Origin: Gammaproteobacteria bacterium
GTDB taxonomy: Bacteria; Pseudomonadota; Gammaproteobacteria; SZUA-140
NCBI GenBank assembly: GCA_015491865.1
Contig: WFVD01000015.1
Location: 225,430 to 289,429 of the forward strand
Direction of reading: 5' to 3'
Length of the DNA stretch: 64,000 nucleotides
The position numbers were made by a program, and so were the translations under genes. The notes beneath the pieces were generated by a model. It was not told the origin of the DNA. It saw nothing but the letters and a program-made list of their open reading frames with translations, and did not search any database. Below, one piece after another: positions 9,181-50,937 of the stretch. Numbering within the stretch: position 1 is the stretch's first letter; every line of letters starts with the position of its first letter.

Positions 9181-9220
9181 ATCTCGACCAGATCTGTTTT
9201 TTCTCTGAATCGAGATAAAA

Positions 9221-16726: not shown

Positions 16727-16752
16727 TCCAGATTTTTAAGCCAGACCAGCCA

Positions 16753-19166: not shown

Positions 19167-19208
19167 CTTCTCTGTAAATGCAGCTATTACCCACCGCGCG
19201 TAACCACT

Positions 19209-19239
19209 AAGAACCGCCTCTTGACCAGGGGCGGCTCTT
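19209..19239 (+). terminator. Probable terminator hairpin
   Basis: AAGAACCGCCTCT-TGACC-AGGGGCGGCTCTT. Confidence 0.5.
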
Positions 19240-19660: not shown

Positions 19661-20506
19661 ATGGAAATCAAGCGTATGACATTTTTGAAGGGCGTGGCGA
19701 TTGGGGGCATCGCCATGCTAACAGCTGCATGTTCGGATTCTGATGACCATCACGAATCGAAAGCGGCTGACCATGGGAAAGCGGCTCATGCTGAGAAAGC
19801 GAGCCATGCGGGTGCCGCTGGTCACCCCTCCCACTGGGCCTATGAAGGCAATGGTGCGCCGCACGCCTGGAGCGTCATCAAAGAGGAGTACGCCACCTGC
19901 GGTACCGGTAAGAGCCAGTCTCCGATCGATATTTCAACGGTCACCATTAGCGATCTCTCTGAAATCGAATTTAACTACAAATCGATTCCGCTGGAGCTGA
20001 CCAACAATGGTCACACCGCCCAGGTAAACTATCACAGTGGCAGCTACATCACCGTTGGTGGAAAACGTTACGACCTGCTTCAGTTCCATTTTCACGCCCC
20101 TTCTGAACATACCATCGGTGGCAAAGGTTACGACATGGTTGTGCATCTGGTTCACAAGGCGGCCGATGGCCAGCTGGGTGTCATTGGCGTGCTGTTCAAA
20201 GCAGGCAAAGATAAAAATAAGGTTATCGACAAACTGTGGGCTAACCTGCCAACAGAGAGCGGCCAGACTAATACGGTCAAAAACAGTCGCATCAATGCGA
20301 TTGATCTGTTGCCAGCAGATCTCACCTACTTCAACTACTCTGGCTCTTTGACCACACCACCATGTTCTGAGGGGGTTAACTGGATGGTCATGGCCACCCC
20401 GGCGCCCATCTCTGCGAAACAGGTTAAGCAGTTTACCGATCTGTTCCCGCTGAGTACCCGCCCGGTACAGCCACTGAATGGGCGCGTGGTACGCGTTAGC
20501 AACTAG
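19661..20506 (+). CDS. Alpha-class carbonic anhydrase, predicted lipoprotein
   Basis: LTAAC lipobox, HWAY, QSPIDI, NNGHT, QFHFHAPSEH, HLVH, GSLTTPPCSEGV. Confidence 0.95.
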   Translation: MEIKRMTFLKGVAIGGIAMLTAACSDSDDHHESKAADHGKAAHAEKASHAGAAGHPSHWAYEGNGAPHAWSVIKEEYATCGTGKSQSPIDISTVTISDLSEIEFNYKSIPLELTNNGHTAQVNYHSGSYITVGGKRYDLLQFHFHAPSEHTIGGKGYDMVVHLVHKAADGQLGVIGVLFKAGKDKNKVIDKLWANLPTESGQTNTVKNSRINAIDLLPADLTYFNYSGSLTTPPCSEGVNWMVMATPAPISAKQVKQFTDLFPLSTRPVQPLNGRVVRVSN

Positions 20507-33756: not shown

Positions 33757-34033
33757 ATTCTCACTACAACGCGAAGGTTAAGGCCATCGTCATTCCTGCG
33801 GGATCGATATGATACCTGTTCCGACACCTCAGAAGAGGAAGCGACTCCCCGTCCCTCATTGAATGCCGATATCATACGTGATGGTGCTACTCGGTGCCAT
33901 TGTTTCACAAGGGGTTGAATGATACCTGAGCCGCACGATATGCCGTTATAACCGCCGTTCAACCAGCGGCGCTTCGACTTACGCCACCCCAGCGCGTATT
34001 ATGAGAGCCAGAAGCTGTTTAACGGAGCAGAAT

Positions 34034-35200
34034 ATGGTCTCTCGCCGTCACGTTATTATCATCACCGTAGTTCTCACTGCTGCAGCCGTTCTCTTGTTAA
34101 ATCGTGAAAAACCACTCGCTGTTATCACCCATGTTGTCGAACGCGGCGAGGTCACTGCCACCGTGACCAACACCCGCGCCGGTACAGTGAAAGCGTGCCG
34201 TCGTGCCCGCCTCGCCCCAACCATCGGTGGGCAGATCGCACGGCGTGCCGTCAGCGAAGGGGACAGGGTCACTACCCATCAACTACTCCTGGCGCTATGG
34301 AATGATGATCTCAAGGCTCAACTGGCGCTAACAGAGCGCGAGGCAGATGCAGCTGCTTCGCATCAGCAACAGAGTTGTTTGATGAGTGAACGCGCCAGAC
34401 GTGAAGCCGAACGCCAACAGGCCCTGCTGAGCAAAAAACTGGTGAGTGAAGAGACCGCCGACCAGGCGATAACCAATGCATTGGCACTGGAAGCAAACTG
34501 CAAGGCGGCGACCGCTAACCATGAGGTGAGTATGCGCCGCATTGATGTTGCACGGGCCAATCTCGAACGTACCCGCATCCGTGCGCCATTTGCCGGCACC
34601 GTCGCTAAAATCAATGGAGAGCTGGCCGAATTTGTCACACCCTCTCCGGTCGGGGTTTCAACCCCACCAGCAGTTGACCTGATCGATACCAGCTGCCTCT
34701 ATATCTCCGCTCCGATTGATGAAGTCGATGCCCCCCGTATACAGACCTTAATGGATGCGCGCATCTCTCTCGACGCCTTCCCCGAGCAGCAGTTTGACGG
34801 CATCGTGCAGCGTATCGCCCCTTATGTGCTGGCGGTTGAGAAACAGGCACGTACAGTTGAGGTCGAGACGGTCTTCTCCAATCCCGAGGATTTTAAGCAG
34901 ATGCTGCCCGGCTATAGTGCCGATGTTGAGATCACCCTCGCATCACGCCGTGACGTGATACGAATCCCAGGCGAGGCGATTCTGCGCGATAACATGACCG
35001 ATGAGCGCAAGCCCGCTGTATTGATCATCCATAACGATGGCCTGCTTGAGCGTCGCACCATTACCACCGGCATCGCTAACTGGCAGTTTACCGAAGTCAC
35101 CCGGGGCCTCAAGGCGGGTGAAACGGTTGTACTATCGGTCAATCGTGACGGCGTGGTCGATGGCGCCTATGCAGAGAGTGAACAGGCCAGCAGAAAATGA
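34034..35200 (+). CDS. MacA-like periplasmic adaptor of an ABC efflux system
   Basis: IGGQI..VSEGDRV, coiled hairpin, IRAPFAGTV, IDEVD, LPGYSADV. Confidence 0.9.
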   Translation: MVSRRHVIIITVVLTAAAVLLLNREKPLAVITHVVERGEVTATVTNTRAGTVKACRRARLAPTIGGQIARRAVSEGDRVTTHQLLLALWNDDLKAQLALTEREADAAASHQQQSCLMSERARREAERQQALLSKKLVSEETADQAITNALALEANCKAATANHEVSMRRIDVARANLERTRIRAPFAGTVAKINGELAEFVTPSPVGVSTPPAVDLIDTSCLYISAPIDEVDAPRIQTLMDARISLDAFPEQQFDGIVQRIAPYVLAVEKQARTVEVETVFSNPEDFKQMLPGYSADVEITLASRRDVIRIPGEAILRDNMTDERKPAVLIIHNDGLLERRTITTGIANWQFTEVTRGLKAGETVVLSVNRDGVVDGAYAESEQASRK

Positions 35201-35880
35201 TCCAGCTGCAACAGATTCACCGTATCTTTAAAGTTGGTGATCAGCAGGTTCATGCACTCAATGATCTCTCACTAACGATCAATGGTGGCGAATACCTTTC
35301 GATCATGGGCCCTTCGGGTTCGGGCAAGTCAACCCTGCTCAACCTGATTGGCCTGCTGGACCAGCCCACATCAGGTGAATATACCTTTAACAACCAGAAG
35401 GTCACCACACTCAGCGATGACCAGAAAGCGGTGCTGCGACGTGACCAGATCGGCTTTATCTTTCAGTTCTTTCACCTGGTACCGCGCCTGACAGCGATTG
35501 AAAACATCGAGCTACCGATGGTGCTGGCGGGCATTCCCTCAACTGAGCGCCGCACACGGGTTAGCAGGATCCTTGACGCCGTTGGCCTTGCTGAACGCGC
35601 CCACCATAAACCAGAACAGCTCTCCGGTGGACAACAACAGCGCGTCGCGATCGCACGCGCCACCATTATGCAACCCTCTGTTTTGCTCGCCGACGAACCA
35701 ACCGGAAATCTTGATAGCGCCTCAGGCAACGATGTGGTCGAGATACTTGAAGCGTTAAATCAGCAGGGGATCACGTTGATTATCGTTACCCATGACGCCG
35801 CACTCGGGGCGCGCGCCATGCGAGAAATAAAGATGATCGATGGCCGTATTATCGATGATGGTCACCAAAAGCCACGCTAG
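35197..35880 (+). CDS. ABC transporter ATP-binding protein (MacB/LolD-like)
   Basis: [33 protein letters not shown]. Confidence 0.95.
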
Positions 35881-35881
35881 G

Positions 35882-37093
35882 ATGCGCCTCAACGACACCC
35901 TCTCACTCACCTATGGCGCCCTTCGGGGCGCACCAACACGCACGGGATTAATGTTATTGGCAATGGCGATCGGCGTTGCTGCCGTAGTGGTACTGACCTC
36001 TCTGGGCGAAGGGGCCAGGCGCTACATCAGCGATGAATTCACCTCCCTCGGTACTAACCTGTTAATCGTGCTTCCGGGGCGCTCAGAGACCAGTGGCGAC
36101 ATGGCCACCCTGCTGATGAGTGATACGACCCGCGACCTGACGCTTGATGATGCTCGCGCCCTGATGCGCAGTCGTTACATTCGTCGCCTGTCGCCGATTA
36201 ATGTCGGTTCATCGCAGCTCTCATGGCGTGAACGTTCACGAGATATCTCTGTGTTTGGGGCCACCCATGATCTGCTCGCTATCCACCACTGGAAGATGGC
36301 ACAAGGGCGTTTCCTGCCCCTGGTCGAAATGGATCGTGCCACACCTGTCTGCGTGATAGGTGCCAGGTTAAGCAGCGAACTCTTTGGCAATCGCCCCCCT
36401 GTTGGAGAGTGGGTACGGCTGGGCGAGCGCCGTTTTCGTGTCATTGGGGTGCTGGCGACCAAGGGACGTACCGTTGGCATCGATGTAGAGGAGATTGTGG
36501 TGATTCCCGTCGCCTCCGCGCAGGCGCTGTTCAATGAAGCGTCGCTATTTCGCATCATTATCGAAGCCAGGGACAGAGATGCAATCAGGCATGCCAGTGC
36601 ATTTATCAAAACCACGCTCCGTAAGCGTCATCAGGGTGAAGAGGATATCACCCTCATCACACAGGACGCCGTACTCGCCACCTTTGATAAAATATTCCAG
36701 TCACTCACCTTTACTGTCGCCGGTATTGCAGCCATCAGCCTCGCAGTAGCAGGCATCCTGGTGATGAATGTGATGCTGGTTTCGGTATCGCAACGCACCG
36801 CTGAAATCGGGCTATTAAAAGCACTGGGCGCTTCACAGCGACAGATCGTCACCCTCTTTTTATGGGAGGCCGCGATGCTCTCATTTGCAGGTGCCTGCAT
36901 TGGACTACTCATTGGCCTGGGGGGTAGCTGGCTCATCGGCTACCTCTTTCCTGCCATCACCATGGGCGCCCCACTATGGGCCGTTGTGGCAGCCGTTGGC
37001 GTGGCACTGCTCACCGGCCTGCTGTTTGGTGTAATGCCTGCACGCCGTGCAGCAAGGCTCAACCCTGTGCTGGCGCTGGTGCACCACCGCTAA
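35882..37093 (+). CDS. MacB/FtsX-type ABC permease
   Basis: LAMAIGVAAVV, MNVMLVSVSQRTAEIGLLKALGA, PARRAARLNP. Confidence 0.92.
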   Translation: MRLNDTLSLTYGALRGAPTRTGLMLLAMAIGVAAVVVLTSLGEGARRYISDEFTSLGTNLLIVLPGRSETSGDMATLLMSDTTRDLTLDDARALMRSRYIRRLSPINVGSSQLSWRERSRDISVFGATHDLLAIHHWKMAQGRFLPLVEMDRATPVCVIGARLSSELFGNRPPVGEWVRLGERRFRVIGVLATKGRTVGIDVEEIVVIPVASAQALFNEASLFRIIIEARDRDAIRHASAFIKTTLRKRHQGEEDITLITQDAVLATFDKIFQSLTFTVAGIAAISLAVAGILVMNVMLVSVSQRTAEIGLLKALGASQRQIVTLFLWEAAMLSFAGACIGLLIGLGGSWLIGYLFPAITMGAPLWAVVAAVGVALLTGLLFGVMPARRAARLNPVLALVHHR

Positions 37094-37104
37094 CATCGCC
37101 TGAT

Positions 37105-38304
37105 ATGCTGATTAAGGATCTTATCAAACTCACCAGTTGTGCAGTCATCGCACAACGTATGCGCAGTTTCCTCACCTCACTGGGTATCGCCATCGGCGTT
37201 GCGGCAGTGGTGCTGCTCACATCGATTGGTGACGGCATGCAGCGCTTTGTGATGGCGGAGTTTACCCAGTTTGGCACCAATCTAATCGCCATCAACCCTG
37301 GCAAAACGACCACCCACGGCGCATCGATCGGAATCTATGGTACAGAACGACCATTAACGATTGATGATGCGGCAGCGCTTGAAAAATTGCGTGATGTTGA
37401 AGCCGTCGTACCGCTGGTTCAGGGCAATGCCGAAGTTGAATCAACTCACCGTCAGCGACGCACTACGGTATATGGCATCAGTGGTGACATGCCTCACGCC
37501 TACCGTGTTGAAGTAGCGCTGGGGCGCTATTTTATCAATGAAGACCCCAGTACACCGCGTGCAGTGGCGGTACTTGGCAGTAAACTCCGCAGCGAACTCT
37601 TTGGCAGCCGTAACCCGTTAGAGCAGCGTATTCGCATTGGCGGGGAGCGTTACCGCATCATCGGGGTCTTTGCACCAAAGGGGCAGATTCTCGGCGTTGA
37701 TCTCGACGATGCCGTCTATATTCCTGCTGCACGTGCGCAGGAGATGTTTAACCGCGATAGCCTGGTAGAGATTGACCTGCTCTACCGCGAGACAGCTGAT
37801 GTTGATGAGGTAGTGGCCAGCATCGCTCGCCTGCTAAGTGCTCGCCATGGGCGTGATGATGTTACGATCACGACCCAACAACAGATGCTCGATGTGCTCG
37901 GTTCAGTGCTCGCCATTCTCACCTTTGCAGTAGCAGCGCTCGGTAGTATTTCGCTGCTGGTCGGTAGCGTCGGCATCTTTACAATCATGACCATCGCCGT
38001 GAATGAGCGGACCAGTGAAATTGGCCTGCTGCGTGCGCTGGGTGGAAAGCGCCAACAGGTAATGGCTATCTTTCTTGGTGAAGCGATCATCCTCGCTACG
38101 CTCGGAGGGCTACTCGGCCTGGTTATTGGCGTGGGCGGTGCACAACTGCTCACGCTGCTTTTCCCTGCCCTACCTGTTCACATCTCATGGAACTACCTGA
38201 TTGCCGCTGAGACACTCGCCATCGTGATCGGCGTTATCGCTGGTGTCTGGCCGGCGCGACGTGCGGCAAAACTCAACCCAGTTGATGCATTGCGCAGTGA
38301 ATAA
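37105..38304 (+). CDS. MacB/FtsX-type ABC permease (second paralog)
   Basis: LGIAIGVAAVV, ERTSEIGLLRALG, PARRAAKLNPVDALRSE. Confidence 0.92.
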   Translation: MLIKDLIKLTSCAVIAQRMRSFLTSLGIAIGVAAVVLLTSIGDGMQRFVMAEFTQFGTNLIAINPGKTTTHGASIGIYGTERPLTIDDAAALEKLRDVEAVVPLVQGNAEVESTHRQRRTTVYGISGDMPHAYRVEVALGRYFINEDPSTPRAVAVLGSKLRSELFGSRNPLEQRIRIGGERYRIIGVFAPKGQILGVDLDDAVYIPAARAQEMFNRDSLVEIDLLYRETADVDEVVASIARLLSARHGRDDVTITTQQQMLDVLGSVLAILTFAVAALGSISLLVGSVGIFTIMTIAVNERTSEIGLLRALGGKRQQVMAIFLGEAIILATLGGLLGLVIGVGGAQLLTLLFPALPVHISWNYLIAAETLAIVIGVIAGVWPARRAAKLNPVDALRSE

Positions 38305-38415: not shown

Positions 38416-38593
38416 CTGAAATAACGAGATAAAGGAAGCGCTCCCTGCCAGTTTCTGGCAAACAAGGCCATTGAATATCAATATCAGTTTTTTTAACCAT
38501 CACTGGCCAGCCACAAGTGACTTATTGGAATATAAAATCCAGTTCAATTAACAACTTAATAGTTTTACGACGATGTGTGTCAGGAGAAAAGCA

Positions 38594-41227
38594 ATGAAAG
38601 CAGCGGTAGCACCTTACGAAAGTTCTCTCGGTCTAAACGTTGAATTATTAGAGCAATCGTTCGAGGCCCTCGCGCCATCGGGTGAAAAGCTGGTCAAACG
38701 CTTTTATCAGGAGCTATTCAAACGCTACCCCGACATCAAGCCGCTGTTTGGCAAGAGCAGCATGGCTGCTCAACAGAAAAAGCTCCTCGCTGCACTCAAA
38801 CTGGTGGTTAATAATCTACGCAACCCGCAGGGATTAGAGGGGGCATTAATCGATCTTGGTGCCAAACATGAAGATTACGGTGCCATCGCAGAACATTACA
38901 GCGCAGTCGCCGAGACGATGCTTGATGTACTTGAAGAGTTCGCTGGAGATCTATGGACCCTGGAGGTGTGTGATGCCTGGAGCGACGCGCTCAACCTCGT
39001 CGCACAGACGATGCTAGAGGGTTATAACGGCGATCAAAGTACTACAGGCTCAGCCTCTCTGATGGGGGACCTTGAGACCATGAAGGATATTCTTGAGCAT
39101 GCACCCATCAATATTATGATGGCGGATGCAGATGAAAATGTGGTGTTCGTGAACCGTCAGGCACGTGAGATTCTGCAGGAAGTTGAAGATGAACTCGCGC
39201 TCTATATCCCAGGGTTCAAAGTCAGTGAAGTGATCGGCGGGAGTATCCACCGTTACCATAAAAACCCGGCGCTCATCAAAAAATTGCTAGCGCAGCTTAA
39301 GCCGGGCGAGTCGCATAAGGGCGAAATTAAGCCGGGCCATTTCATCTTCGAACATGAAACACGCCCCCTTTTCGATCAACAGGGAAACCGTACCGGATTT
39401 GTTGTGCAGTGGACTGATGTCACCGCAAGGCGCGCAAAAGAAGAGGAGGCATTCAGATTACAGCGCGCTATTGATGGTTCTCAAACCGCGATCATGACGA
39501 TTGACCGTGACCTGGTGGTGACCTATGCCAATGAGCAGACCATATCACTGATGAAAAATTACGCCGCTGAGCTAAGCGAACTATACCCGACACTAAACCT
39601 TGATGAGCTGGTCGGCAGCTCTATCGATGTATTCCATAAGAACCCGGAGATGCAGCGCCAGCTGCTCGCTGACCCCGCTAACCTGCCATATGAAACGGAC
39701 ATACAGGTTGGCCCCCTTACCTTTCATATTCATGTCACCGCTATTATGGATCTTAATAATAACTATATTGGCAACACATTGGAGTGGGCCGATGTGACAG
39801 AACTGCGTAAAAAAGAGGTTGAAGTGACTCGTCTCTCATCTGCGGTTAATGGTGCCGCCTCTAATCTAATGTTGTGTGATGAGAATATGATCATCACCTA
39901 TGCAAACCCGGCTGTCGTTAAGATGCTGGCATCTCGACAGGCAGCACTGCAAAACCGCTTTCCATCGCTTGATCCTCACAACCTTGTGGGACAGAGCATT
40001 GATCAGTTCCATGCGAATCCACAACACCAGCGAGCGCTACTCTCTAATGTCGATGCGCTACCCGCCAGGGCGCAACTTGAAATCGCCGGACTACACTTTG
40101 AGGTCAATGCCACTGCAATCGTCAGCCCAGAGGGCAAGTACATGGGCAACATGGTTGAATGGAAAGATATGACCGAACAGAAAGATGCTGAGATGCAGAT
40201 TAACCAGCTCGTCGAGGGCGCTATTGCCGGTAATATTGATAAGCGCATCGACACATCAGTGTATAGCGGCTATATGCGTAACCTTGGCGACGGTATCAAC
40301 AGCTTGCTTGAGGCCGTAGTAGAACCGTTAAAAGAGGGTATCGATGTCCTCTCCCACCTGGCTAATAGTGACCTGACGAAGACGATGGATGGTGAATATC
40401 AGGGTGAATTCGCTGTTTTTAGTGAATCGATCAATACCACTGTGGATAACATGGCAGAGATCGTCAATAAGATCATCATCTCATCACAGGAGATCAAAGG
40501 TGCTTCAGGCGAAATTTCACAAGGTAACACTGACCTCAGCCAGCGTACTGAAGAACAGGCATCATCACTGGAAGAGACCGCTTCTAGCATGGAAGAGCTG
40601 ACGGGTACTGTGAAACAGACGGCTGATAATGCACAGCAAGCGACCAGACTTTCTCAAGCTGCTCATGAAGAGGCGGAAAAAGGTGGTGAAGTTGTTGGTA
40701 AAACGATCGATGCGATGAGTGAAATCAATGCAGCGAGTAAAAAGATCGCCGACATTATTGGTGTTATCGATGAGATCGCCTTCCAGACCAACCTGCTGGC
40801 ACTCAACGCAGCGGTGGAGGCTGCACGTGCAGGTGAACAGGGGCGCGGCTTTGCCGTTGTTGCAGCAGAGGTTCGTAACCTCGCACAGCGCAGTGCGGGC
40901 GCAGCAAAAGAGATTAAAGGGCTGATTCATGACAGTGTCGAAAAGGTCAACCAGGGAACCGAGTTGGTCGATATTTCAGGAAAATCGCTTGAGAATATTG
41001 TTGCTTCCGTAAAGAAAGTGAATGATATTATCGCTGAGATTGCTGCCGCGAGCCAGGAACAGTCAGCCGGTATTGGCCAGATCAATAAAGCGATCTCTCA
41101 GATGGACGAAGTGACACAACAGAATGCCGCATTAGTCGAGGAGGCGGCAGCGGGTAGTGAATCGCTTAATGAACAGGCAATAAGCCTTAACGAGATGATG
41201 ACTGTTTTTAAATTAGGTAAAGGATAA
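38594..41227 (+). CDS. Soluble chemoreceptor: globin + 3 Aer2-type PAS + HAMP + signalling domain
   Basis: AGGAG RBS; globin [15 protein letters not shown]; three [FY]HxNP...[EQ]WxD repeats; [20 protein letters not shown]; no TM. Confidence 0.88.
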
Positions 41228-41300: not shown

Positions 41301-43379
41301 TTATTCAAACTTAAAACTAATTTCACCATATACGCTTCTACCTGCCAACGGGTAATCAGCAGGGATGGTTGCCCCTTGCGAATGTCCGGGTGTATAGGTT
41401 GATGGCGCCCTGGCATCCTCATTAAAGAGGTTTCTAACAGAGAAGGTAAAATCCATATTGGGCAGTAGCTGGCGGCGCTTTATGGTTGCATCAACAATTG
41501 TATAATCATCTATTTCGCTTCTGGGATCACCTGCAGCACGTTTGCGATCTGCGATCCATTTCAGCTGCGTACCCAGAAACCACTGCGGCTGAAGCCCCCA
41601 ATGAGCACTTGCATAAAATTGCTGCCGGGGTGCATTGGGCACATCTGCACCTGTCACACTATCTTCTGCATTTTGAAAGGCGAAGAAGCTTCGTAGTTGT
41701 AGCCTGGAGCTAACATGCCAGTTGCCCTCAAGCTCAAAGCCACTTCCTCTCTGTTTACCTGTATTTGCCGCGGGTTCCCCAAATGTTCGGTCAATCAAGT
41801 CATCGATGCGGTAACTAAAGAGACTCAGCACCAGGTTCACCTCGCGGGCAGGGCGGTAGTCAATCACCGCTTCATATGTCTCAATCGTCTCTGCGGCCAG
41901 ATCTGGGTTACCAAGGATTGCCGGGTTGTTTTTATAATAAAGCTCACTAAATGTGGGCGCCCGAAAGGCCTGGCCATAGAGTAGCTTTGTCGTTAGATTG
42001 GGCCGCCCCATCCAGACGACTGCAATACGCGGATTGGTTGTATCCCCAAAGTCAGAATAGTTATCATAGCGAACACCCGCTGTCACTGCCCAGTCCTGAT
42101 TAATGGTCCACTCATCCTGAAGCAGGATATGGTTGACCGTTCTGGATTGCCGAGTCATATATGCAAATGGTGACCCCGTAACATCAACGGTTATACCAGC
42201 GGGAAGACCTGTCCCAAAGTTCTTCACTTCACGTGGGTCAACTTCGACCCACTCAGAACCGACCCCGAGCAGTATACTGTGGCTCGAAATCCCTGAATAA
42301 TTAGAGCGAACAGAGAGACTGCCCTTTCGCTGGGTCGCCCCTGGACGCCCGAACCTGTCCACAGTAACAGAACCAATGGGGGGGTATAAAACAAAATATG
42401 AATCCAGCTCACTCAGCTCGTAACTCAGGCGGGAACTAATATCCAGCGCCGGCAGGACATCTCGGTTTTCATGCTGCATATCCAATAAATATAGTTCAGA
42501 CTCGTCATAACCCTCTGGGTCTATAATCTGTGTAGCCCCCTGCCCAACCCCTGCTCTCTTCAGATCCCAGTTCCATAGTCTAAATGTCCACTCTTCATTA
42601 TTTAACGTCACCTCTGTATTAGTGTAGTCATAATAAGTCTCAAGCGGACCACTGCCTATGATGGGCGGTAATGATAACGGAGGTGGAACAAAGTCTTCAT
42701 TTCGATACTCGACAACGCGGCTGCTATCACCGTCGCTACTGCTCGTCTCAAGGCTAAATGCAAAATCCCACCCTGCCAGATCTGTTGCGTGACGCAACCA
42801 GACATCCTGTGTATTAAACGATCCCTGGCGCCAGCCAAAGTTTGTGCCGTCATTTTCTATCAGGTTTTTGGTAATGATATTGATGACTCCGCCAAAAGCG
42901 TCCGCACCATATAGTGCAGACCCCGGACTGCGCATCACCTCAATCCGAGCAATATTTGTAACTGGCATACGAAAACCTGCCGGCGTTGATCCTGTTGCAA
43001 CGCTCGTCACATCATGGCCATTCACAAGCATTAATATCTGGGAGTTGTCCGCGGTATGAATACCGCGAATTGAGAAGTGAGAGTCCAGCCTGCCAACAGG
43101 ATCCGGGTATACATTAACGCCAGGGATCATCTCAAGCACTTGCTCAAAAGAGGTAATACCCATCGCCTCAATTTCTGAGGCGGTAATAACATTTGCGACA
43201 GCTGGGGCTCGCGAAAGCTTTTGAGGCTTGCCTGTGACGATCTCAACCTCTATATTCAATAGATCATCCATAGAAAGCTCAAAGAGATCCTCCGCCACCG
43301 TATCACCCTGCACTAACGAAGGCATGACATAAAAGGCAAGCAAGCAGCCGATCACAATTGAGTTGTTAACGCTGTTCAT
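41301..43379 (-). CDS. TonB-dependent receptor (type usually linked to YfiR)
   Basis: Signal peptide, DLFELSMDDLLNIEV, RIEVMRSPGSALYGADAFGGVINIIT, RNLFN, aromatic C-terminus. Confidence 0.92.
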   Translation of the reverse strand: MNSVNNSIVIGCLLAFYVMPSLVQGDTVAEDLFELSMDDLLNIEVEIVTGKPQKLSRAPAVANVITASEIEAMGITSFEQVLEMIPGVNVYPDPVGRLDSHFSIRGIHTADNSQILMLVNGHDVTSVATGSTPAGFRMPVTNIARIEVMRSPGSALYGADAFGGVINIITKNLIENDGTNFGWRQGSFNTQDVWLRHATDLAGWDFAFSLETSSSDGDSSRVVEYRNEDFVPPPLSLPPIIGSGPLETYYDYTNTEVTLNNEEWTFRLWNWDLKRAGVGQGATQIIDPEGYDESELYLLDMQHENRDVLPALDISSRLSYELSELDSYFVLYPPIGSVTVDRFGRPGATQRKGSLSVRSNYSGISSHSILLGVGSEWVEVDPREVKNFGTGLPAGITVDVTGSPFAYMTRQSRTVNHILLQDEWTINQDWAVTAGVRYDNYSDFGDTTNPRIAVVWMGRPNLTTKLLYGQAFRAPTFSELYYKNNPAILGNPDLAAETIETYEAVIDYRPAREVNLVLSLFSYRIDDLIDRTFGEPAANTGKQRGSGFELEGNWHVSSRLQLRSFFAFQNAEDSVTGADVPNAPRQQFYASAHWGLQPQWFLGTQLKWIADRKRAAGDPRSEIDDYTIVDATIKRRQLLPNMDFTFSVRNLFNEDARAPSTYTPGHSQGATIPADYPLAGRSVYGEISFKFE

Positions 43380-43687
43380 CTTTTCGTCGCGGTTCCTCTA
43401 GCTGCATTCATGTCAGACAAGCAACCAGCGGCGACCATATTCTTACTGATTCTAGTCTTCCTAACTAAGCCTACATCCCTCTGCACCCAACTTCCCAGGC
43501 CATACAGAATATTATTAATACTCCTACAAATTTATGATTAATTCAACAAGGTTCCTACATGGTTATAACAATATCTATGACCTTACAAACAGAGTCAGCT
43601 ATGTACATCACTTAAGGACATAACCCCGGGAGCATTAGAAGTGCTGCTTAGTAGTACCCTGAAAAATCATGGAATGGTTACAACTAT

Positions 43688-44527
43688 TCACCCTCGAACC
43701 TCATCTTCCTGCTCGGGTAGCAACCTGTGCGGCTTCCCCTGGTAAAGCACATCATCACAACGAAGCGGTAAAAAGGTACCTGCCGGTCTGTTTCGCATAT
43801 CCACATAACAGGCTGTAACACCACTCGCGACCAGCGTTGAGCAGATAAGGTAAACTTCATCGGGTGAAAAACCCTGATCAGAGAGGAAGGCTGACATATA
43901 ACCATTAATGTTCATCCCTTCATTAAAGCGCTCATCAAGTACGCTTTCGATCTCATAAGCCAGTTTCAGATGCGCGCCGACCTGGAACCCAAGGTTTTTT
44001 GCGACCCGTTCCATTGCAGGAACCCGCTCATCACCTTTAGCTATCGGCCTCCCGTATCCCATAATAAAAGGCTTCCCGCCATGTTTGGCGCATTCGTTGG
44101 TTACGATGTCTGTTACCGAAACTCCGTTATTAAAAGCCAGCATTGCAGCCTGAATAAAAGAGAGCCCCGCCTTTAACGGCTTGATACCATATGAACGTGA
44201 GTCTGTTGCCAGAACCCCCGCAACCGTTGACGCAACAGATGAGGCTCTCATCGTGCCACCGAGTGCGCCGATATGGTTACACCAGATACGTGAATCGGGC
44301 CAGCTCAAGCAGATATGCGCCGCTTCAATGCACTCTGCGAGCCGTCGCTCCGGTAACCGGCCAGTTGCATTCAGAACCACTACCTGCATATAAGTGACCT
44401 TTCCGACCAGTTCATCCATCATTTCATAGCCGTGACAATAAACCCCGTCACCGATCAACCAGCCCCCTTTTTTGCTGATGATCTTATTGCGCTGCCGGTC
44501 CCAGAGAGTGGTATCTTGTTTAGTCAT
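43688..44527 (-). CDS. Citrate synthase / citryl-CoA lyase-fold protein B (altered active site)
   Basis: CHGYEMMDELVG, TGRLP, MGYGRP..GDERV, MNINGYMSAFLSDQGF, SGVTAC. Confidence 0.75.
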   Translation of the reverse strand: MTKQDTTLWDRQRNKIISKKGGWLIGDGVYCHGYEMMDELVGKVTYMQVVVLNATGRLPERRLAECIEAAHICLSWPDSRIWCNHIGALGGTMRASSVASTVAGVLATDSRSYGIKPLKAGLSFIQAAMLAFNNGVSVTDIVTNECAKHGGKPFIMGYGRPIAKGDERVPAMERVAKNLGFQVGAHLKLAYEIESVLDERFNEGMNINGYMSAFLSDQGFSPDEVYLICSTLVASGVTACYVDMRNRPAGTFLPLRCDDVLYQGKPHRLLPEQEDEVRG

Positions 44528-45365
44528 AGTCGATGGTATACGCCTTGTCGCTGATAAATGGCATCGCGGTTATTGGTTTATTGGCCTGCTCCATACCATG
44601 TGCCAGCAGGCCGGGGGCCGAGAGCAGCTGAAAGAGCCCCGCACCAGAACGGGGATGAAAACCAAGATCGGCAAAGACAGCGGCTGCGACGCCGACATTA
44701 AGCCACCCCATGTTGTGTTTCTCTAATGCGGATGAGAACTGGGCACCCCACTTCATGATATCACCACACCCGGGGAGCTCAAGAAGGAGAGTGACAAGTT
44801 TAGATGACATCAGGTCAACACCGCCAAAACAGCTACCAAAACCAGGTACGATGTGCCAGTCACCCTCTTCAGGCTGCCCCTCTCCCTGCGCCTTCAGCAG
44901 CTGCTCAACAAGCCGGACAGGATCTTCTCTGCGGTGCCTTCTCATAAAACGCATCGCGCCTTCAACCTCACCTGCGCCTAGATGTTCTCCCCCCATGATC
45001 GCCAAGCTAATCGGCAAAATATGCTGAGGATCCGTCTTGCCTATACCCGCATTCATCGCAGCACGTGTAGCAGGATGGCGTGGACCAGGGTTAATTAGCC
45101 CAATCATCAACTTCTCTAACAGCTGGCGTTCATCCGTCGATGGCATATCACCCCTGAATAGCAGGTAAAAAGTGTCGATATAACTCGCCCCTCGCATCAA
45201 ATCTATGAGGTCATAACCGTGGCAGCGGCTACTATCTGCAATATAAGGATTATCGCTGGATGCCAGCTCCTCCCAGATGCGCGTTGATGCCTTATCTGCA
45301 AAGGGTTCAGTCCGTGCGGTAACTTTCTGGTGGCGTTGTTGTTTCTCCATATCATTTCCACTCAC
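44520..45365 (-). CDS. Citrate synthase / citryl-CoA lyase-fold protein A (altered active site)
   Basis: CHGYDLIDLM, YLLFRGDMP, GGEHLGA, VPGFG, AAVFADLGF, PGLLAHGMEQ; 8-nt overlap with protein B. Confidence 0.78.
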   Translation of the reverse strand: MSGNDMEKQQRHQKVTARTEPFADKASTRIWEELASSDNPYIADSSRCHGYDLIDLMRGASYIDTFYLLFRGDMPSTDERQLLEKLMIGLINPGPRHPATRAAMNAGIGKTDPQHILPISLAIMGGEHLGAGEVEGAMRFMRRHRREDPVRLVEQLLKAQGEGQPEEGDWHIVPGFGSCFGGVDLMSSKLVTLLLELPGCGDIMKWGAQFSSALEKHNMGWLNVGVAAAVFADLGFHPRSGAGLFQLLSAPGLLAHGMEQANKPITAMPFISDKAYTIDYD

Positions 45366-46249
45366 ATCTTTAATTGATCAACTATCATCATCCTTACCCC
45401 CATAGGGGAAACATCATCTTCTCAATATAAACATCCTGCAAACAAAGGCTACCTGTTTGATAGAGCGACTCATCACTTACTCCCAGCATGCAATCAGACA
45501 TTTATTTTCGATCTTTTTACACCAACCGCGATGCCTGTTCTGTTAACGTACGCATGTATCACTGAGGTTTAACCACACTTAGCGTAACACTCTCACCACC
45601 CCCACTGCGACCGCGAAATTCAACACCAACGAAGTGACACAAGAATGAACAGTTCTCTACTTCATTCACAGCCGTATCGGCATACAATATAAGCGGTAAT
45701 TATCATGATATTGCTGTCTGCTCTATCACACCCTTTTCTATCAAATACTATAACAACCGGGATATTATTCAATGCTATGCATGAAGCTGGAACACTATCT
45801 GAGCAAAGGTTAAATAGATAACAGATAAACCTTTTACCCCCCGCTAAGCTGACTGGTTACTCGGTAAAAAGCATACTGGCTACTGTCTGGAGACTAAAGC
45901 CTGTTACTATCTGCTTTAAATTGTGTGTTAGCAGATCATGATGGTAATAGGCACTGTCGATTTACCACTTTCTAGCCAACATGTAGTATGTATGGCAATA
46001 CAGAAAAAGATACGTATAACCGATAACCACCATATACTTATGGAATAAAGGCATAATACGCTAACACTGTGTGGGTTTCTGTTAGCTACTGATAAGCTAT
46101 AAGCACTAACAACATATTAATATAGAGACGCATCTCGTGAAGTTTATTGATTACTGCCTTTACTACTCTCTTTCACCATCAGCACCCTCTCTCTCCGGCC
46201 TTTCTCTGCGAGCGGGATCTGCTCGTTCACGCCAAAGTTAGGTCATGTT

Positions 46250-46801
46250 ATGAAACAACTGTTTTCCTGCTTGTTTTTTCTTATAGGCATCGTGCTGCTA
46301 ACGCCTGCCAGCCACGCAGGTGATTTTGATGTTCGTGAATATAGCCTGAAAGCTGTTTTTCTAGAGCGTTTCACTCGTTTTATTGACTGGCCAGACAGAA
46401 GCCCTTCTGAAAACAGACTTAATCCTTTTATCATTAGCGTAATTGGAAACCGGAAATTTTCAGCCCTACTTAGAGAGATCTATCAGACTCAGAAAATTCA
46501 GGGGAAAAAAGTCATCATTCAGGATATCGATAACGGCGAAGGCGTAAAAAACGCTCATATACTTTTCATCTCTCACATGCCTGAAGAAGCGCTTGATAAA
46601 GTCCTGGCACAGGTGAAAAACACCCCGGTGCTTACTATTTCAGATTCTGATGGGTTTGCTGAGCAGGGGGTCATGATCAACTTCTTTATGTCAAAGAAAC
46701 AGAAGATCCGATTCGAAATTAATGAACTCGCAATAAAAGAGTCTGATCTATATATCAGCTATAAACTACTCTCCGTTGCAAAAATAGTCGGGAGGGAATA
46801 G
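46250..46801 (+). CDS. YfiR/HmsC (DUF4154) family periplasmic protein
   Basis: Signal peptide, EYSLKAVFLERFTRFIDWP, PVLTISD..FAEQGVMINF, IRFEIN, LLSVA. Confidence 0.9.
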   Translation: MKQLFSCLFFLIGIVLLTPASHAGDFDVREYSLKAVFLERFTRFIDWPDRSPSENRLNPFIISVIGNRKFSALLREIYQTQKIQGKKVIIQDIDNGEGVKNAHILFISHMPEEALDKVLAQVKNTPVLTISDSDGFAEQGVMINFFMSKKQKIRFEINELAIKESDLYISYKLLSVAKIVGRE

Positions 46802-46804
46802 CAA

Positions 46805-49207
46805 ATGAAGATGCTACGCAACCTCTCAATTAGGAAAAAGCTCATCGCGATTATCCTTATCGCCACCAGCACCGTTATGGCAATTGGCTTTAGCGTTATT
46901 ATTTATAATGACATCAATGACTTCAAACTGGATGTCAGTAACAATAGTGTTATTAATGCACGACTTGTTGGCGATGAAAGCGTTAGCCCGTTAGCATTCT
47001 CCGATCCCGAGGGTGCCCGCGAAATCCTGCAACGATTTAATGCAATCCCCTCCGTTATCAACGCCAGAATCTATGACCATAACGATAATATTTTTGCCTC
47101 CTACGACAGGGATGAGCAACTACCCTTGCCACAAACCCCTCTCGTTAAAGCAGCACTTGTTGAGTACGAAGGAAAATGGCTCCATGTATACCAGCCAATC
47201 ACCTATCGAGATGAGCTTTATGGTTACATCTATCTCCGTGTCTCCACGCAGGCGCTCGATAAAAAGATAAACACCTACCTTTTAACAATTTTTTACATCA
47301 TGCTGGGGTTAATTGCATTTTCATATTATCTTGCAAGCCGTTTGCAACACATCATCTCAGGCCCAATTATTAAGCTGACAGAAGCAACGCGTAAGATTGC
47401 ACAGGATGACAACTACACCTTCCGCGCTGAAAAACAGAGTAATGACGAAATTGGCGTACTGTATGATGATTTCAACAATATGATTGACAAGATTTCGCAA
47501 CGCAAGCAGGAGCGAGATAAAGCATTACGAGAACTATTCGAAGAGAAAGAGCGCGCTCAGGTGACACTTGAGTCGATCGGTGACGCTGTCATCACAACAG
47601 ACATTCACGGCAAAATAGACTACATCAACGCTGTCGCTGAAAATCTGACAGGATGGAGTCACGAAGAAGCAGCGGGGCAGCAGGTCGAGCATATCTTCCG
47701 CATCATTAATGAGATTACACGAGAGAAATCTGTCAATCCGGTCGAGCGCTGTATTAATGAAGGACGCATTGTTGAGCTAGCCAATCACACCGTTCTCATC
47801 TGTAAAGATGGCAGTGAAATCGCCATCGAAGATTCAGCGGCACCGATCAGAAATCAGGCGGGTGAGTTAATTGGAGTTGTGATGGTATTTCATGACGTCA
47901 CAGAGTCACGCAAACTTTCTCAACAGTTAATCTACCAGGCGCGTCACGATGCACTGACAGGGCTTATTAACAGGCGCGAATTTGAAGAGCGTCTTGAACA
48001 TGCCATTGAGCAGGCCCGAGTCAATCACTATGACCATGCCCTGCTATATATGGATCTTGATCAGTTTAAAGTGGTCAATGATACCTGTGGGCATGCCGCG
48101 GGCGATGAGCTGCTGCGGCAGATTACATCGTTATTACAGTCCCAGATGCGCAAGCACGACACCCTTGCAAGACTGGGAGGTGATGAGTTCGCCGTATTAC
48201 TCGAATATTGCGGCTCAGATGAGGCAAACAACGTTGCTGAAAGCCTCTGCGAAGCTGTTGAGTCTTACCGCTTTACCTGGGAGGGAAACAGCTTCGTGGT
48301 TGGCGTAAGCATCGGCCTGGTACCGATCAACAAGAACAGCGGTAGCCTTGGCGTGGTCATGAGCATTGCAGACAGCGCCTGCTACGCGGCTAAAGAAGCG
48401 GGAAGAAACCGCATCCATAGCTATGTGGAAGATGACACCACTGTCGCCCAGCGCCATGGTGAGATGCGCTGGGTTTCACGCATCACCCAGGGACTCGAAG
48501 AGAATAATTTCACCCTCTATCGGCAGGATATTCTGTCAATTGGAAAGCACACAACAAATGGAGACCACTACGAAGTTTTAATCAGAATGAAGGATGGAGA
48601 GGGGGCGTTAGCGATGCCCAACTCCTTCTTACCGGCAGCCGAACGCTATAACTTGATGCCCAAACTGGATCGCTGGGTTATCAGAACTATCTTTGAGTGG
48701 CTCAGCAACGCCACAGATGAGCTGGAAACACTTGCAATGTGCTCTATCAACCTCTCAGGCCACTCAGTTGGTGACGATAAATTTTTACAGTACACCATTA
48801 ACCTGTTTGAGAAATACCACATCCCACCTGGCAAAATCTGTTTTGAGATCACGGAAACGGCAACGATTGTCAATTTGACCAGTGCTACCCGCTTTATTCG
48901 CGCCCTCAAAAAGAAAGGATGTCGCTTCGCACTGGATGACTTTGGTTCCGGGATGTCTTCGTTCCTATACTTAAAAAATCTTCCCGTTGATTTCCTGAAA
49001 ATTGATGGTGGATTTGTGAAAGATATTACACATGACCCGATGGATCTGGCTCTGGTCCGCTCGATCAATGACATCGGCCATGTGGTTGGAATGAAAACAA
49101 TTGCTGAATTCGTGGAGAGCGAGGATGTGCTCAGAAAATTAAAAGTACTTGGGGTCGATTACGCCCAAGGCTACCATTTTGGGCAGCCCATGGAGTTGAT
49201 CCGTTAG
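46805..49207 (+). CDS. Membrane sensor (CHASE8-like)-HAMP-PAS-GGDEF-EAL protein
   Basis: Two TMs, PLAFSDPEGAREIL, HAMP DEIG, PAS SIGDAVITTD, RKHD + GGDEF, EVLIRM, DDFGSG, AEFVE, AQGY. Confidence 0.92.
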   Translation: MKMLRNLSIRKKLIAIILIATSTVMAIGFSVIIYNDINDFKLDVSNNSVINARLVGDESVSPLAFSDPEGAREILQRFNAIPSVINARIYDHNDNIFASYDRDEQLPLPQTPLVKAALVEYEGKWLHVYQPITYRDELYGYIYLRVSTQALDKKINTYLLTIFYIMLGLIAFSYYLASRLQHIISGPIIKLTEATRKIAQDDNYTFRAEKQSNDEIGVLYDDFNNMIDKISQRKQERDKALRELFEEKERAQVTLESIGDAVITTDIHGKIDYINAVAENLTGWSHEEAAGQQVEHIFRIINEITREKSVNPVERCINEGRIVELANHTVLICKDGSEIAIEDSAAPIRNQAGELIGVVMVFHDVTESRKLSQQLIYQARHDALTGLINRREFEERLEHAIEQARVNHYDHALLYMDLDQFKVVNDTCGHAAGDELLRQITSLLQSQMRKHDTLARLGGDEFAVLLEYCGSDEANNVAESLCEAVESYRFTWEGNSFVVGVSIGLVPINKNSGSLGVVMSIADSACYAAKEAGRNRIHSYVEDDTTVAQRHGEMRWVSRITQGLEENNFTLYRQDILSIGKHTTNGDHYEVLIRMKDGEGALAMPNSFLPAAERYNLMPKLDRWVIRTIFEWLSNATDELETLAMCSINLSGHSVGDDKFLQYTINLFEKYHIPPGKICFEITETATIVNLTSATRFIRALKKKGCRFALDDFGSGMSSFLYLKNLPVDFLKIDGGFVKDITHDPMDLALVRSINDIGHVVGMKTIAEFVESEDVLRKLKVLGVDYAQGYHFGQPMELIR

Positions 49208-49666: not shown

Positions 49667-49716
49667 TTGACAGCCCCCACACAAAATACTATTATTCGAA
49701 AAATGTCGAATAATAG
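49667..49716 (+). promoter_or_regulatory. sigma70 promoter and ArsR operator palindrome
   Basis: TTGACA-N17-TATTAT; perfect inverted repeat CTATTATTCGA-N6-TCGAATAATAG (49689-49716). Confidence 0.8.
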
Positions 49717-50020
49717 CAAAGAAAGTCTACGCTTCCCGGCAGCATTTAAGGCGCTCAGCAACCCTCATCGGCTGGCACTTTTTTATCGATTGATGAATTG
49801 TTGCGAACCTGGGACTAAATGTAATGCGGCCTCAGCGGCTCGCTTTTGTGTCGGCGATCTTGGCGAAGGGCTCAATATCGCACCATCAACCCTCTCTCAC
49901 CATTTAAAAGAGTTAAACCGTGCCGGGCTAGTTGAAATGGAGCGCAGAGGTAAAAATGTTGAATGCTGGGTTGAACCAGAAAAATTAAAGTCGTTAAGTT
50001 CCTTCTTTCAGAACGACTAA
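49703..50020 (+). CDS. arsR: ArsR/SmtB-family repressor
   Basis: FKALSNPHRL, CC..C..CVGDL, STLSHHLKELNRAGLV; upstream of arsM. Confidence 0.85.
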   Translation: MSNNSKESLRFPAAFKALSNPHRLALFYRLMNCCEPGTKCNAASAARFCVGDLGEGLNIAPSTLSHHLKELNRAGLVEMERRGKNVECWVEPEKLKSLSSFFQND

Positions 50021-50061
50021 GCGAGTAACCATCCGCTTCCAGATACTTAAAGGACCCAAAC

Positions 50062-50937
50062 ATGTGTGATTCAAACTGCTGTGAACCCAATTCAAGCTGC
50101 TGCCCTTCTGAAGATGCCAATCATGCCGCTCAAGATGCACATCGCCAGGAGGTGCGCGACGCCTATGGCCAGGTGGCTCGCGCTGAAAATAATAGCGAAT
50201 CTTGCGGCATTGAGAGCAGTTGCTGCGGTGTCTCGGATGATAGCGCCATCAACAGACTCATTTCGACCCGCATTGGTTATAGTGAAGAAGATCTTGCCAG
50301 GGTACCCAGCGGGGCAGACATGGGGCTCGGCTGCGGCAATCCACGCGCAATTGCATCCCTGAAAGCGGGAGAGACGGTCGTTGATCTTGGTTCCGGCGGT
50401 GGCTTCGACTGTTTTCTTGCCGCTCATGAAGTGGGGGAAAAAGGTCACGTCATCGGCATTGACATGACCCCGGATATGCTTAGCAAAGCGCGTAATAATG
50501 CAGAAAAAGGAGAATTTAAAAATGTTGAATTTCGCCTCGGTGAAATTGAACATCTTCCAATAGCGGATGCCACTATTGATGTCATCATCTCTAACTGTGT
50601 TATCAATCTATCACCCAACAAGCCCCAGGTTTTTAGCGATGCATTTCGCGTTCTTAAACCGGGCGGTCGACTTGCGATCTCCGATGTCGTCGCAACGGTC
50701 GAGCTACCTGAAGAGATGCGCAGTGATCCGGCACTGATTGCCGGCTGCATGGGCAATGCCTCACTGATTGAGGATCTGGAAAAGATGATCAAGGCAGCGG
50801 GCTTCTGCGACGTAAAAATCGAACCAAAGGACGAATCAAAGACTTTTATTCGCGACTGGGCACCCGACCATAACGTGACTGACTATGTTGTCTCAGCCAC
50901 CATAGAGGGCACCAAACCTGGCGGTGGTTGCTGTTAA
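50062..50937 (+). CDS. arsM: Arsenite S-adenosylmethionine methyltransferase
   Basis: [33 protein letters not shown]; Cys-rich termini. Confidence 0.92.

Follow-up and report, generated by a model that had tools for sequence, protein, structure and literature searches.

The window analysed here is a stretch of 64,000 nucleotides from a gammaproteobacterium of the GTDB lineage SZUA-140 (assembly GCA_015491865.1, contig WFVD01000015.1, positions 225,430 to 289,429), with positions counted from its first letter. A listing of open reading frames (ORFs) and profile searches of the window confirmed five genes in two divergent groups (Table 1), the first holding a TonB-dependent receptor and an overlapping, co-oriented pair of citrate-synthase-like (CS-like) genes, here termed CSA and CSB, and the second a gene for a predicted periplasmic YfiR-like protein (family DUF4154), followed by that of a membrane sensor. 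An earlier note on this DNA had described the same anatomy and had found no yfiB lipoprotein gene, and both statements hold: the 317-kb contig carries no gene with an OmpA (YfiB-like) domain, and the seven such genes of the genome all lie on other contigs. Comparative sequence analysis indicates that a conserved multi-gene module is present here in a local, reduced form made up of these five genes. The reading we favour, to which we give an even chance, is that the module is a receptor-coupled periplasmic sensing route to cyclic di-GMP (c-di-GMP), its ligand being made or tailored by the module's own enzymes.

Table 1. Genes and intergenic segments of the module copy in the window
Feature	Position	Strand	Description
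TonB-dependent receptor	41301-43379	-	692 aa; Pfam Plug 55-165 (78 bits), barrel 286-651 (150 bits)
Spacer CSB/receptor	43380-43687		308 nt
CSB, CS-like	43688-44527	-	279 aa; citryl-CoA-lyase/citrate-synthase fold
CSA, CS-like	44520-45365	-	281 aa; same fold; paralog of CSB; 8-nt overlap with CSB
Divergent intergenic region	45366-46249		884 nt; 41% G+C; no ORF
DUF4154/YfiR-like protein	46250-46801	+	183 aa; signal peptide; periplasmic (predicted)
CHASE8-HAMP-PAS-GGDEF-EAL sensor	46805-49207	+	800 aa; starts 3 nt after the YfiR-like gene

A scan with one genome per species returned 176 loci with a CSA relative, and the counts given here rest on the best-scoring 80 of them. CSB adjoins CSA in 80/80 loci, and in 79/80 the window's receptor has a full-length homolog (37-97% identity by tblastn) no more than 10 kb from the pair, the sole miss being a pair at a contig end. 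ORFs were called and clustered in these 80 loci plus the window, the pair being called in 80 (L065, where the picker missed it, was dropped), and cluster representatives were annotated by Pfam and NCBIfam. The families that recur beside the pair are the receptor, an enzyme dependent on thiamine diphosphate (ThDP), a PAS-GGDEF-EAL protein, a periplasmic partner, a HAMP-containing kinase and a short-chain dehydrogenase/reductase (SDR). Within a well-flanked subset of 50 loci, which have at least 6 kb on each side, the receptor is present in 50/50, the ThDP enzyme in 42/50 and a PAS-GGDEF-EAL protein of the sensor's family in 42/50, while a periplasmic partner is found in 46/50, as a DUF4154-kinase fusion (21), a protein like a substrate-binding protein (SBP; PF04392) (18) or a free YfiR-like protein (7). 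The enrichment that the earlier note had named as a check on its proposal is present in these counts, and it persists around pairs that are only 33-35% identical to the window's.

Lineages differ in gene order, and same-strand runs interleave enzyme with signalling genes, e.g. DUF4154-kinase, receptor, CSA and CSB converging on the ThDP gene and then GGDEF-EAL in Cellvibrionaceae, and SBP, kinase, receptor, CSA and CSB in Desulfuromonadales. The module spans several proteobacterial families as well as Desulfuromonadales and Desulfobulbaceae, with host labels that include Gallionellaceae, Sideroxydans, Tenderia and Thiogranum (iron- and sulfur-oxidising lineages, which we take to be autotrophs), together with metal reducers and cable bacteria. 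It could be argued that the enzymes, the receptor and the YfiR-sensor pair are independent genes brought together by chance or local synteny, given that the two divergent groups in the window stand 884 nt apart and that a ThDP gene lies elsewhere in the genome, but we give this almost no credence, as the association recurs across families with different gene orders, interleaved operons and sensor wirings. Moreover, the genome (2.54 Mb, 99.99% complete) has only three Plug-domain receptors and one DUF4154 gene, and because the arrangement recurs in distant lineages against so sparse a background, the five genes are not a chance neighbourhood.

Seven of nine other genomes of the window's genus carry the pair, and the two without it are only 74-78% complete; no pair was found in 25 genomes from other families of the class. 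Four genomes from other genera of the window's family hold the 33-35% identical pairs, and one of these loci, fully annotated, encodes on one strand a ThDP enzyme, an O-methyltransferase of the small-molecule type (PF00891), CSA-like and CSB-like proteins, a receptor, an SBP-like protein and a long sensor of 1504 aa (sCache-HAMP-kinase-Hpt-REC-REC-GGDEF-EAL); a second keeps this order from the ThDP gene to the long GGDEF-EAL protein but lacks an ORF for an O-methyltransferase between its ThDP and CS genes. Among 400 further genomes sampled evenly across the phylum, 10 carry the pair, and 6 of these have receptor, SBP and GGDEF-EAL or kinase genes on one strand. Five genomes of the sample, all of one family, share the operon receptor, CS, CS, ThDP, SBP, GGDEF-EAL, one has the order ThDP, CS, CS, receptor, receptor, SBP, long kinase, and another (L100, genome G212) shows, on a contig of 9.9 kb, ThDP, CS, CS, an acyl carrier protein (ACP) and an AMP-binding enzyme. 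On that contig the 83-aa carrier protein (PP-binding, 24.1 vs 20.8) and the AMP-binding enzyme directly follow CSB (7805-9571, plus strand) before the contig ends, and together they hint at thioester chemistry in one lineage. These variant contexts lead us to regard the ThDP enzyme and the CS pair as the enzyme core, almost always attached to a dedicated sensor, the receptor/c-di-GMP form being common without being the sole one.

The enzymes of the core are also tied to one another at the level of single proteins. We found predicted fusions of a ThDP enzyme with a CSA-like protein (P0360, 885 aa), of CSA with CSB (P0257) and of CSB with the SDR (P0241-P0243, 529-533 aa), which tie the enzymes into one pathway; all of them are predicted proteins from assemblies, among which an occasional read-through artefact is possible. 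The module's ThDP enzyme is about 615 aa long and belongs to the acetolactate-synthase superfamily, and its NCBIfam scores to acetolactate synthase and ScyA-related models are alike and all under the cut-offs. Its closest solved relatives are BbmA and CsmA (PDB 8x3x and 8x3z; E 2e-81 and 2e-77); the window differs from these enzymes, and from acetolactate synthase and ScyA-related carboligases, in having no ThDP gene. In five loci of the same clade (L002-L005 and L008) the order is CS-CS-SDR-receptor, with the SDR gene occupying the place of the window's 308-nt spacer, and in L005 a ThDP gene lies directly upstream of CSA. The window and the 93%-identical locus L001 have neither SDR nor ThDP gene at the locus, and tblastn recovered no remnants of either gene in the window.

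Both CSA and CSB find their best solved relative in the citryl-CoA lyase 6hxp (phmmer E 1.4e-16 and 2e-10, near full length), and they are distant paralogs of each other (22% identity, E 2e-5). A Foldseek search with an AlphaFold2 model of CSB, a low-confidence monomer model (mean pLDDT 60.5) that was used for the fold search only, likewise returned 6hxp (E 2e-9), then ATP-citrate lyase (ACLY) and citrate synthase chains, and no folds other than citryl-CoA lyase, ATP-citrate lyase and citrate synthase, while in the ESM Atlas all matches fell in clusters named 'citrate synthase'. Both proteins nevertheless score below the curated cut-offs for citrate synthase and citryl-CoA lyase, with CSA at 23 vs 27 and CSB without a match for Pfam PF00285, and with best NCBIfam scores (PRK06224 subfamilies) of 83.6 vs 212 for CSA and 56.7 vs 245 for CSB. 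The family is small, with 401 representatives at E<=1e-3 and 111 at E<=1e-30 among 1.84 billion.

The catalytic residues of citrate synthase, which we take to be the His of HGG, the His of GYGHR and the Asp of NVD, were located through alignments with 6hxp. The window's CSA reads GGEHLG, GFGS for GYGH, and LNV-G with the Asp of NVD deleted, its HGG-type His being present and not conserved among homologs, and the window's CSB reads SRSYG, GYGRP and NING, with all three catalytic positions replaced. Over 64 cleanly called CSA/CSB pairs, on which all conservation figures here are based, the catalytic residue is less than 80% conserved at each of the three positions in both proteins, and the 33-35% identical pairs likewise lack them. 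The earlier note had proposed that the pair makes or modifies an acyl-CoA-derived molecule; as the His/His/Asp residues are conserved in neither protein, acyl-CoA Claisen chemistry cannot be assumed. In each protein some 70 other positions reach 95% conservation or more, and the conserved motifs include INPGPRH, PGFG and APGLxAHGxE in CSA, and SWPDxRIWCN, RPxAKGDER and FLPLRC in CSB, in which GYxRP and NING stand at catalytic positions. An Fe-S or Zn site in CSB was considered and is not claimed; of four Cys residues that are at least 95% conserved in the 64 pairs, only two are kept in the 33-35% identical pairs.

CSA and CSB have lost the catalytic residues of citrate synthase and are predicted to pair as a heterodimer in the cytoplasm. 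The co-folding score of the two, obtained with author-built alignments, was high (ipSAE 0.73 in the median run, vs 0.00 for the best of three controls), with a partner pLDDT of at least 91 and contacts agreeing at 97% or more across runs; of solved complexes, 58 of 80 reach the tool's mark, compared with 2 of 110 mismatched pairs. The most conserved segments of both proteins fall in the predicted subunit interface, and the CSB monomer model is poor in those same segments (pLDDT below 50 at 75-109 and 234-279). Such features raise the alternative that CSA-CSB is a non-catalytic heterodimer that binds a metabolite or serves as a scaffold, regulating the ThDP enzyme or the cytoplasmic PAS-GGDEF-EAL part, and carries out no pathway step itself. 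The lack of any conserved His/His/Asp position over the 64 pairs fits this idea, as do the concentration of conservation at the interface, where the CSB monomer is poorly modelled, and the fusion P0360 to a ThDP enzyme, a form that regulatory subunits sometimes take. We consider it very unlikely nonetheless: some 70 positions at 95% conservation or more, with polar clusters RH..R in CSA and D.R..CN and KGDER in CSB, exceed what a scaffold usually needs, a PGFG/GY motif resembling the CoA-adenine loop is kept, and the SDR fusion suggests a reaction sequence. Relative to citryl-CoA lyase 6hxp, the citryl-CoA lyase module of ATP-citrate lyase and citrate synthase, the pair shares the fold, the length of ~270 aa, the dimeric architecture and a PG[YF]G loop, and differs in scores far under the cut-offs, in the non-conserved His/His/Asp, in its obligate-looking A/B heteromer, and in a context of ThDP enzyme, SDR and receptor in place of carbon fixation or the tricarboxylic acid cycle. 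The 'citryl-CoA lyase' that came up in two Caulobacter papers is CitE, a protein of another fold than CSA/CSB, and was set aside.

Behind its signal peptide the receptor has a short N-terminus that lacks an STN signalling domain, then a Plug and a barrel of the 22-strand type; the Plug begins at residue 55, and the N-termini of the 74 aligned receptors are short. It reaches no NCBIfam family (137 vs 645 on the TOL_0244 model, NF053590), and its highest family scores, all far under the cut-offs, are to receptors for B12, haem and siderophores. These sub-cut-off scores are one argument for a metallophore system, in which the enzymes would build a small carboxylate or hydroxy-acid chelator, the receptor would import its metal complex, and the partner and GGDEF-EAL protein would act as a cell-surface-signalling branch reporting metal supply to c-di-GMP; a receptor gene beside the biosynthesis of its own ligand is the classic siderophore layout, and the carriers include labelled iron oxidisers, metal reducers and cable bacteria. 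We regard this as distinctly unlikely, since the 884-nt intergenic region contains no Fur-box-like 19-mer with at least 13/19 matches to the consensus, no cobalamin or other riboswitch was found by Rfam in the two intergenic regions, and the conserved neighbours include no nonribosomal peptide synthetase, IucA/IucC-type synthetase, exporter, reductase, or periplasmic or inner-membrane uptake genes. The citrate-binding residues of the CS fold are lost as well.

The identity of the YfiR-like protein is where the earlier note, which called the gene yfiR, stands only in part. The protein matches DUF4154 clearly (127 vs 24.9 bits) and passes the cut-off of the TOL_0243 family NF053591 (132.6 vs 125), but it fails the YfiR equivalog NF053586 (sequest_YfiR) at 31.3 vs 85 and is no bona fide YfiR; its sole Cys is residue 7, in the N-terminal signal-peptide region, and a phmmer search found no solved relatives, YfiR chains included. 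The sensor runs in the order transmembrane segment (TM), periplasmic CHASE8, TM, HAMP, PAS, GGDEF, EAL. Its GGDEF is intact, with an RxxD I-site five residues upstream, and its EAL reads EVL together with DDFGSG, so that both catalytic motifs read as intact. The N-terminal part comes just under the cut-off of NF053592 ('HK near YfiR-like', 179.8 vs 194), and on the DgcN/YfiN model the sensor scores 222 vs 325, with CHASE8, HAMP and an intact GGDEF present, and PAS and EAL extra.

The architecture of the output protein follows the kind of periplasmic partner. With a free YfiR-like partner (7/7), or an SBP and no kinase (9/9), the GGDEF-EAL protein has two TM segments, whereas with a DUF4154-kinase fusion (22/22) or an SBP plus kinase (10/12) it has a REC domain and no TM. 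This match between TM/REC pattern and partner points to four interchangeable routes from a periplasmic signal to the same PAS-GGDEF-EAL output. Motifs are largely kept among the 52 GGDEF-EAL members, with GGDEF intact in 49, the I-site in 43 and an EAL-type motif in 50. In genomes of Cellvibrio, Tenderia and Geoalkalibacter the top genome-wide match of the window's sensor is the module-adjacent protein, in Sideroxydans it is not (3/4 genomes); these four genomes hold 37-53 GGDEF/EAL matches each, and the reverse search ranks the window's sensor first. The window's own genome encodes at least 12 long GGDEF-EAL proteins, two of which (C6:67392-69077 and C22:19859-21544) have 46-47% identity to the module output of other genomes, vs 49% for the window's sensor.

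Co-phylogeny, another check in the earlier note, showed distances strongly correlated between CSA and CSB (Spearman 0.81) and poorly between CSA and receptor (0.29), to which paralogous receptors at some loci may contribute; receptor and GGDEF-EAL distances correlate at 0.62. All 28 loci whose partner is of the DUF4154 type group to one side of a single branch in the tree of the receptors (SH-like support 0.945). The same tree joins the window's clade with the Cellvibrionaceae type, which the CS trees separate. Module shuffling was considered and dropped: the approximately unbiased (AU) test on CSA plus CSB fails to reject the receptor-like grouping (p 0.41). On that result we claim no incongruence, and conclude no more than that the lineage of the receptor tracks which kind of periplasmic partner is present. 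Such tracking is what a physical or functional coupling of receptor and partner would predict.

The analysis shows the gene association and its depth, the loss of the catalytic positions and the matched wiring of the sensor parts, and finds support for an enzyme complex in the fusions and the structure prediction; from these observations we infer that a ligand is bound, in which direction the chemistry runs and that receptor and YfiR-like protein make contact. A small molecule would be bound, and probably imported, by the TonB receptor, and the YfiR-like protein would read either the molecule or the ligand-loaded receptor in the periplasm and control the CHASE8 domain of the membrane sensor, whose PAS-GGDEF-EAL part would then alter c-di-GMP. 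The receptor would thereby fill the position of the lipoprotein YfiB in YfiBNR. In most genomes the CS-fold heterodimer would work with the ThDP carboligase-type enzyme and an SDR or O-methyltransferase, and the most likely role of this set is to synthesise or tailor the cognate molecule. Synthesis is favoured over consumption because tailoring enzymes occur in the variants (O-methyltransferase, ACP with AMP-binding enzyme, FkbH-like), because among the widely shared gene clusters and annotated neighbours an inner-membrane importer is found at only four Cellvibrionaceae loci, and because receptor-type modules come without a transcription factor and many hosts carry labels of lineages that are presumably chemolithoautotrophic.

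Several points weigh against the sensing route with ligand-making enzymes. The counts come from part of the loci, and the related genomes among them are not independent observations. The heterodimer score may stem from the solved homodimers of citrate synthase and citryl-CoA lyase, and the CS-like proteins lack the residues that would name a reaction and could have a non-catalytic role. Four of the 50 well-flanked loci (L038, L042, L043 and L050) have no signalling gene at all. Of the 10 carriers in the phylum sample, three genomes of another single family (G148, G172 and G208, loci L101, L107 and L108) show no receptor within the 15-20 kb fetched, and carry a cytoplasmic Ser/Thr-kinase-AAA-GAF-histidine-kinase of about 1730 aa and a REC-LuxR regulator. 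These genes lie beside the ThDP and CS genes in G148 and G208, the enzyme ORFs of G172 being miscalled, and a 597-aa ORF is found in G148 and G172, annotated in G148 only, where it is FkbH-like. This receptor-less variant may sense the same chemistry in the cytoplasm, and its three genomes make the receptor link frequent, not universal.

In the window's genome, the nearest ThDP relative is unlinked, 220 kb away (C15:3690-5495), with a median identity of 42% to the module copies, which is inside the ThDP family's own range, at its low end, and only generic SDRs were found, with no SDR ortholog in the genome. Of the module as we define it, the window therefore has the receptor, CSA, CSB, the YfiR-like partner and the GGDEF-EAL protein adjacent, with ThDP unlinked and the SDR ortholog not found, and the local module may make nothing by itself. 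The earlier note had treated the pair as the whole enzyme set, which does not agree with its usual company of a ThDP enzyme and, often, an SDR. Next to the unlinked ThDP gene, where the contig starts, are a relaxase fragment and an AbiEi-like gene, neighbours that suggest relocation by a mobile element. Contig C15 also encodes, at 11578-13380, a protein of 600 aa that consists almost wholly of ankyrin repeats, an unusual find in a free-living gammaproteobacterium.

Four Cellvibrionaceae loci (L040, L045, L055 and L057) carry an ABC importer of the NMT1/TauA-like type on the same strand, upstream of the ThDP and GGDEF-EAL genes, e.g. in L045 at 16451-19959 (minus strand), where binding protein, permease and ABC ATPase lie directly upstream of ThDP and REC-PAS-GGDEF-EAL. 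This importer fits uptake and consumption, and it belongs with an alternative in which the receptor imports an external compound (a nutrient, a cofactor precursor or a foreign signal), the partner reports it to c-di-GMP, e.g. as an attachment or motility switch, and the compound is degraded or salvaged in the cytoplasm by the ThDP enzyme together with the CS-like heterodimer and the SDR. TonB receptors are importers by default, the ThDP enzyme's superfamily includes lyases and decarboxylases, and kinases that report substrates with the help of periplasmic binding proteins exist, as in TorT/TorS. We judge uptake and use unlikely. Apart from these four loci, no inner-membrane importer was found among the widely shared clusters or annotated neighbours; many carriers are labelled iron or sulfur oxidisers with small genomes, whose presumed autotrophy makes organic catabolism less expected; the tailoring enzymes of the variants (O-methyltransferase, ACP plus adenylating enzyme, FkbH-like) are of a biosynthetic type; and receptor-type modules have c-di-GMP as their only output, with no transcription factor to induce a catabolic operon. 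The importer at four loci, the default import role of TonB receptors and the lost catalytic residues are what keep the rival readings alive beside the sensing route with ligand synthesis that we favour.

The 884-nt divergent region presumably holds the promoters of both gene groups, and scans of the intergenic DNA for promoters and terminators gave sites no more frequent than in shuffled sequence. Rfam gave no match in the whole window at the gathering score, nor in 43300-46400 at E<=1. The region is 84% identical to its counterpart in L001 and has in common with L005 only a 43-nt patch, at about 46138-46180, 70-112 nt upstream of the YfiR-like start and 86% identical to L005, which may be an operator or a 5' leader. 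Around the module, an 884-aa globin-PAS-HAMP chemoreceptor with a methyl-accepting domain (MCP), Aer2-like, is encoded at 38573-41227 (plus strand), convergent with the receptor gene; it scores 883 bits on NF041847 against a cut-off of 1200, and stands beside the receptor elsewhere only in the 93%-identical L001. Beyond it, 3 kb from the receptor, lies a MacAB-like efflux set (HlyD-family adaptor, ABC ATPase and MacB/FtsX permease; 34001-38304, plus strand) that is not kept next to the module in L001. Just 3' of the sensor, at 49667-50937 (plus strand), are genes for an ArsR-type regulator (117 aa) and an arsenite-methyltransferase-like protein (NF008823, 360 vs 263), and the same pair (clusters c13 and c14) also follows the sensor in five relatives of the clade (L002, L003, L005, L006 and L008).

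Among described systems, the closest is YfiBNR (TpbB; Pseudomonas aeruginosa and E. coli), which also places a periplasmic DUF4154 protein beside an inner-membrane CHASE8-HAMP-GGDEF protein, with an outer-membrane component that is expected to capture the periplasmic protein and thereby to relieve or impose control. Our model for the outer-membrane role of the receptor follows the YfiBNR mechanism as set out in PMC4887326, in which YfiR is also reported to bind the small molecules vitamin B6 and L-Trp. The window differs in that it has no YfiB/OmpA lipoprotein and the conserved outer-membrane partner is a TonB receptor, in that its DUF4154 protein fails the YfiR equivalog and has no Cys past residue 7, and in the extra PAS and intact EAL of its sensor; elsewhere in the module DUF4154 is fused to a kinase or replaced by an SBP, and dedicated enzymes are attached. 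A triad of receptor, YfiR-like protein and kinase is already named in NCBIfam (TOL_0244/TOL_0243/kinase; NF053590/1/2), and the window's YfiR-like protein belongs to its TOL_0243 member, with the sensor's N-terminal part near NF053592 and a TonB receptor as the third component. Here, however, the receptor lies outside TOL_0244, the output is GGDEF-EAL with no histidine kinase, and the enzymes are not part of the named triad.

In most lineages the module has an SBP-like (PF04392) gene beside a HAMP kinase that feeds a REC-PAS-GGDEF-EAL protein, and LuxP/LuxQ (for autoinducer-2, AI-2) and TorT/TorS (for trimethylamine N-oxide) resemble it in that a binding protein in the periplasm informs a membrane sensor of a small molecule; the module differs in its SBP family, its dedicated TonB receptor and its c-di-GMP output. 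With FecA-FecR-FecI it shares the passing of an outer-membrane receptor's ligand state to an inner-membrane signalling protein, but its receptor has no STN domain and its output is c-di-GMP, not transcription, the conserved neighbours include no anti-sigma gene and no sigma gene of the extracytoplasmic function (ECF) type, and no sigma or anti-sigma family was found among the annotated neighbour proteins. Full-text literature searches, with most subscription-journal papers and supplementary files outside their reach and the NCBIfam name of the triad not among the search terms, returned no paper on the enzyme-linked module or on the receptor-YfiR-like system.

Control of c-di-GMP signalling by periplasmic repressors or binding proteins is already known, and it is the enzyme arm that is unusual and testable. 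A bolder version of our reading, possible but doubtful in our view, is a new signalling class, in which a CS-fold heterodimer with new chemistry, together with the ThDP carboligase and the SDR or O-methyltransferase, would make a secreted signal that is taken up again by its own TonB receptor, read by a YfiR- or SBP-like protein in the periplasm and turned directly into c-di-GMP, which would join autoinducer-like sensing to an energised, high-affinity outer-membrane gate with second-messenger output, and which would have spread horizontally among bacteria labelled as iron and sulfur oxidisers, metal reducers, cable bacteria and polysaccharide degraders. YfiR-like proteins and most c-di-GMP sensors have no assigned ligand, and the module's enzymes and receptor should define one, which can be tested in culturable Cellvibrio, Teredinibacter and Hahella. 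If the sensing reading is true, a TonB receptor would feed a second messenger instead of an ECF sigma factor, and a citrate-synthase-fold family without the citrate-synthase active site would gain a function. The one output with its four wirings (free YfiR-like protein; fused DUF4154 kinase; SBP plus kinase; SBP plus membrane GGDEF-EAL) is a natural experiment in the exchange of periplasmic sensing modules.

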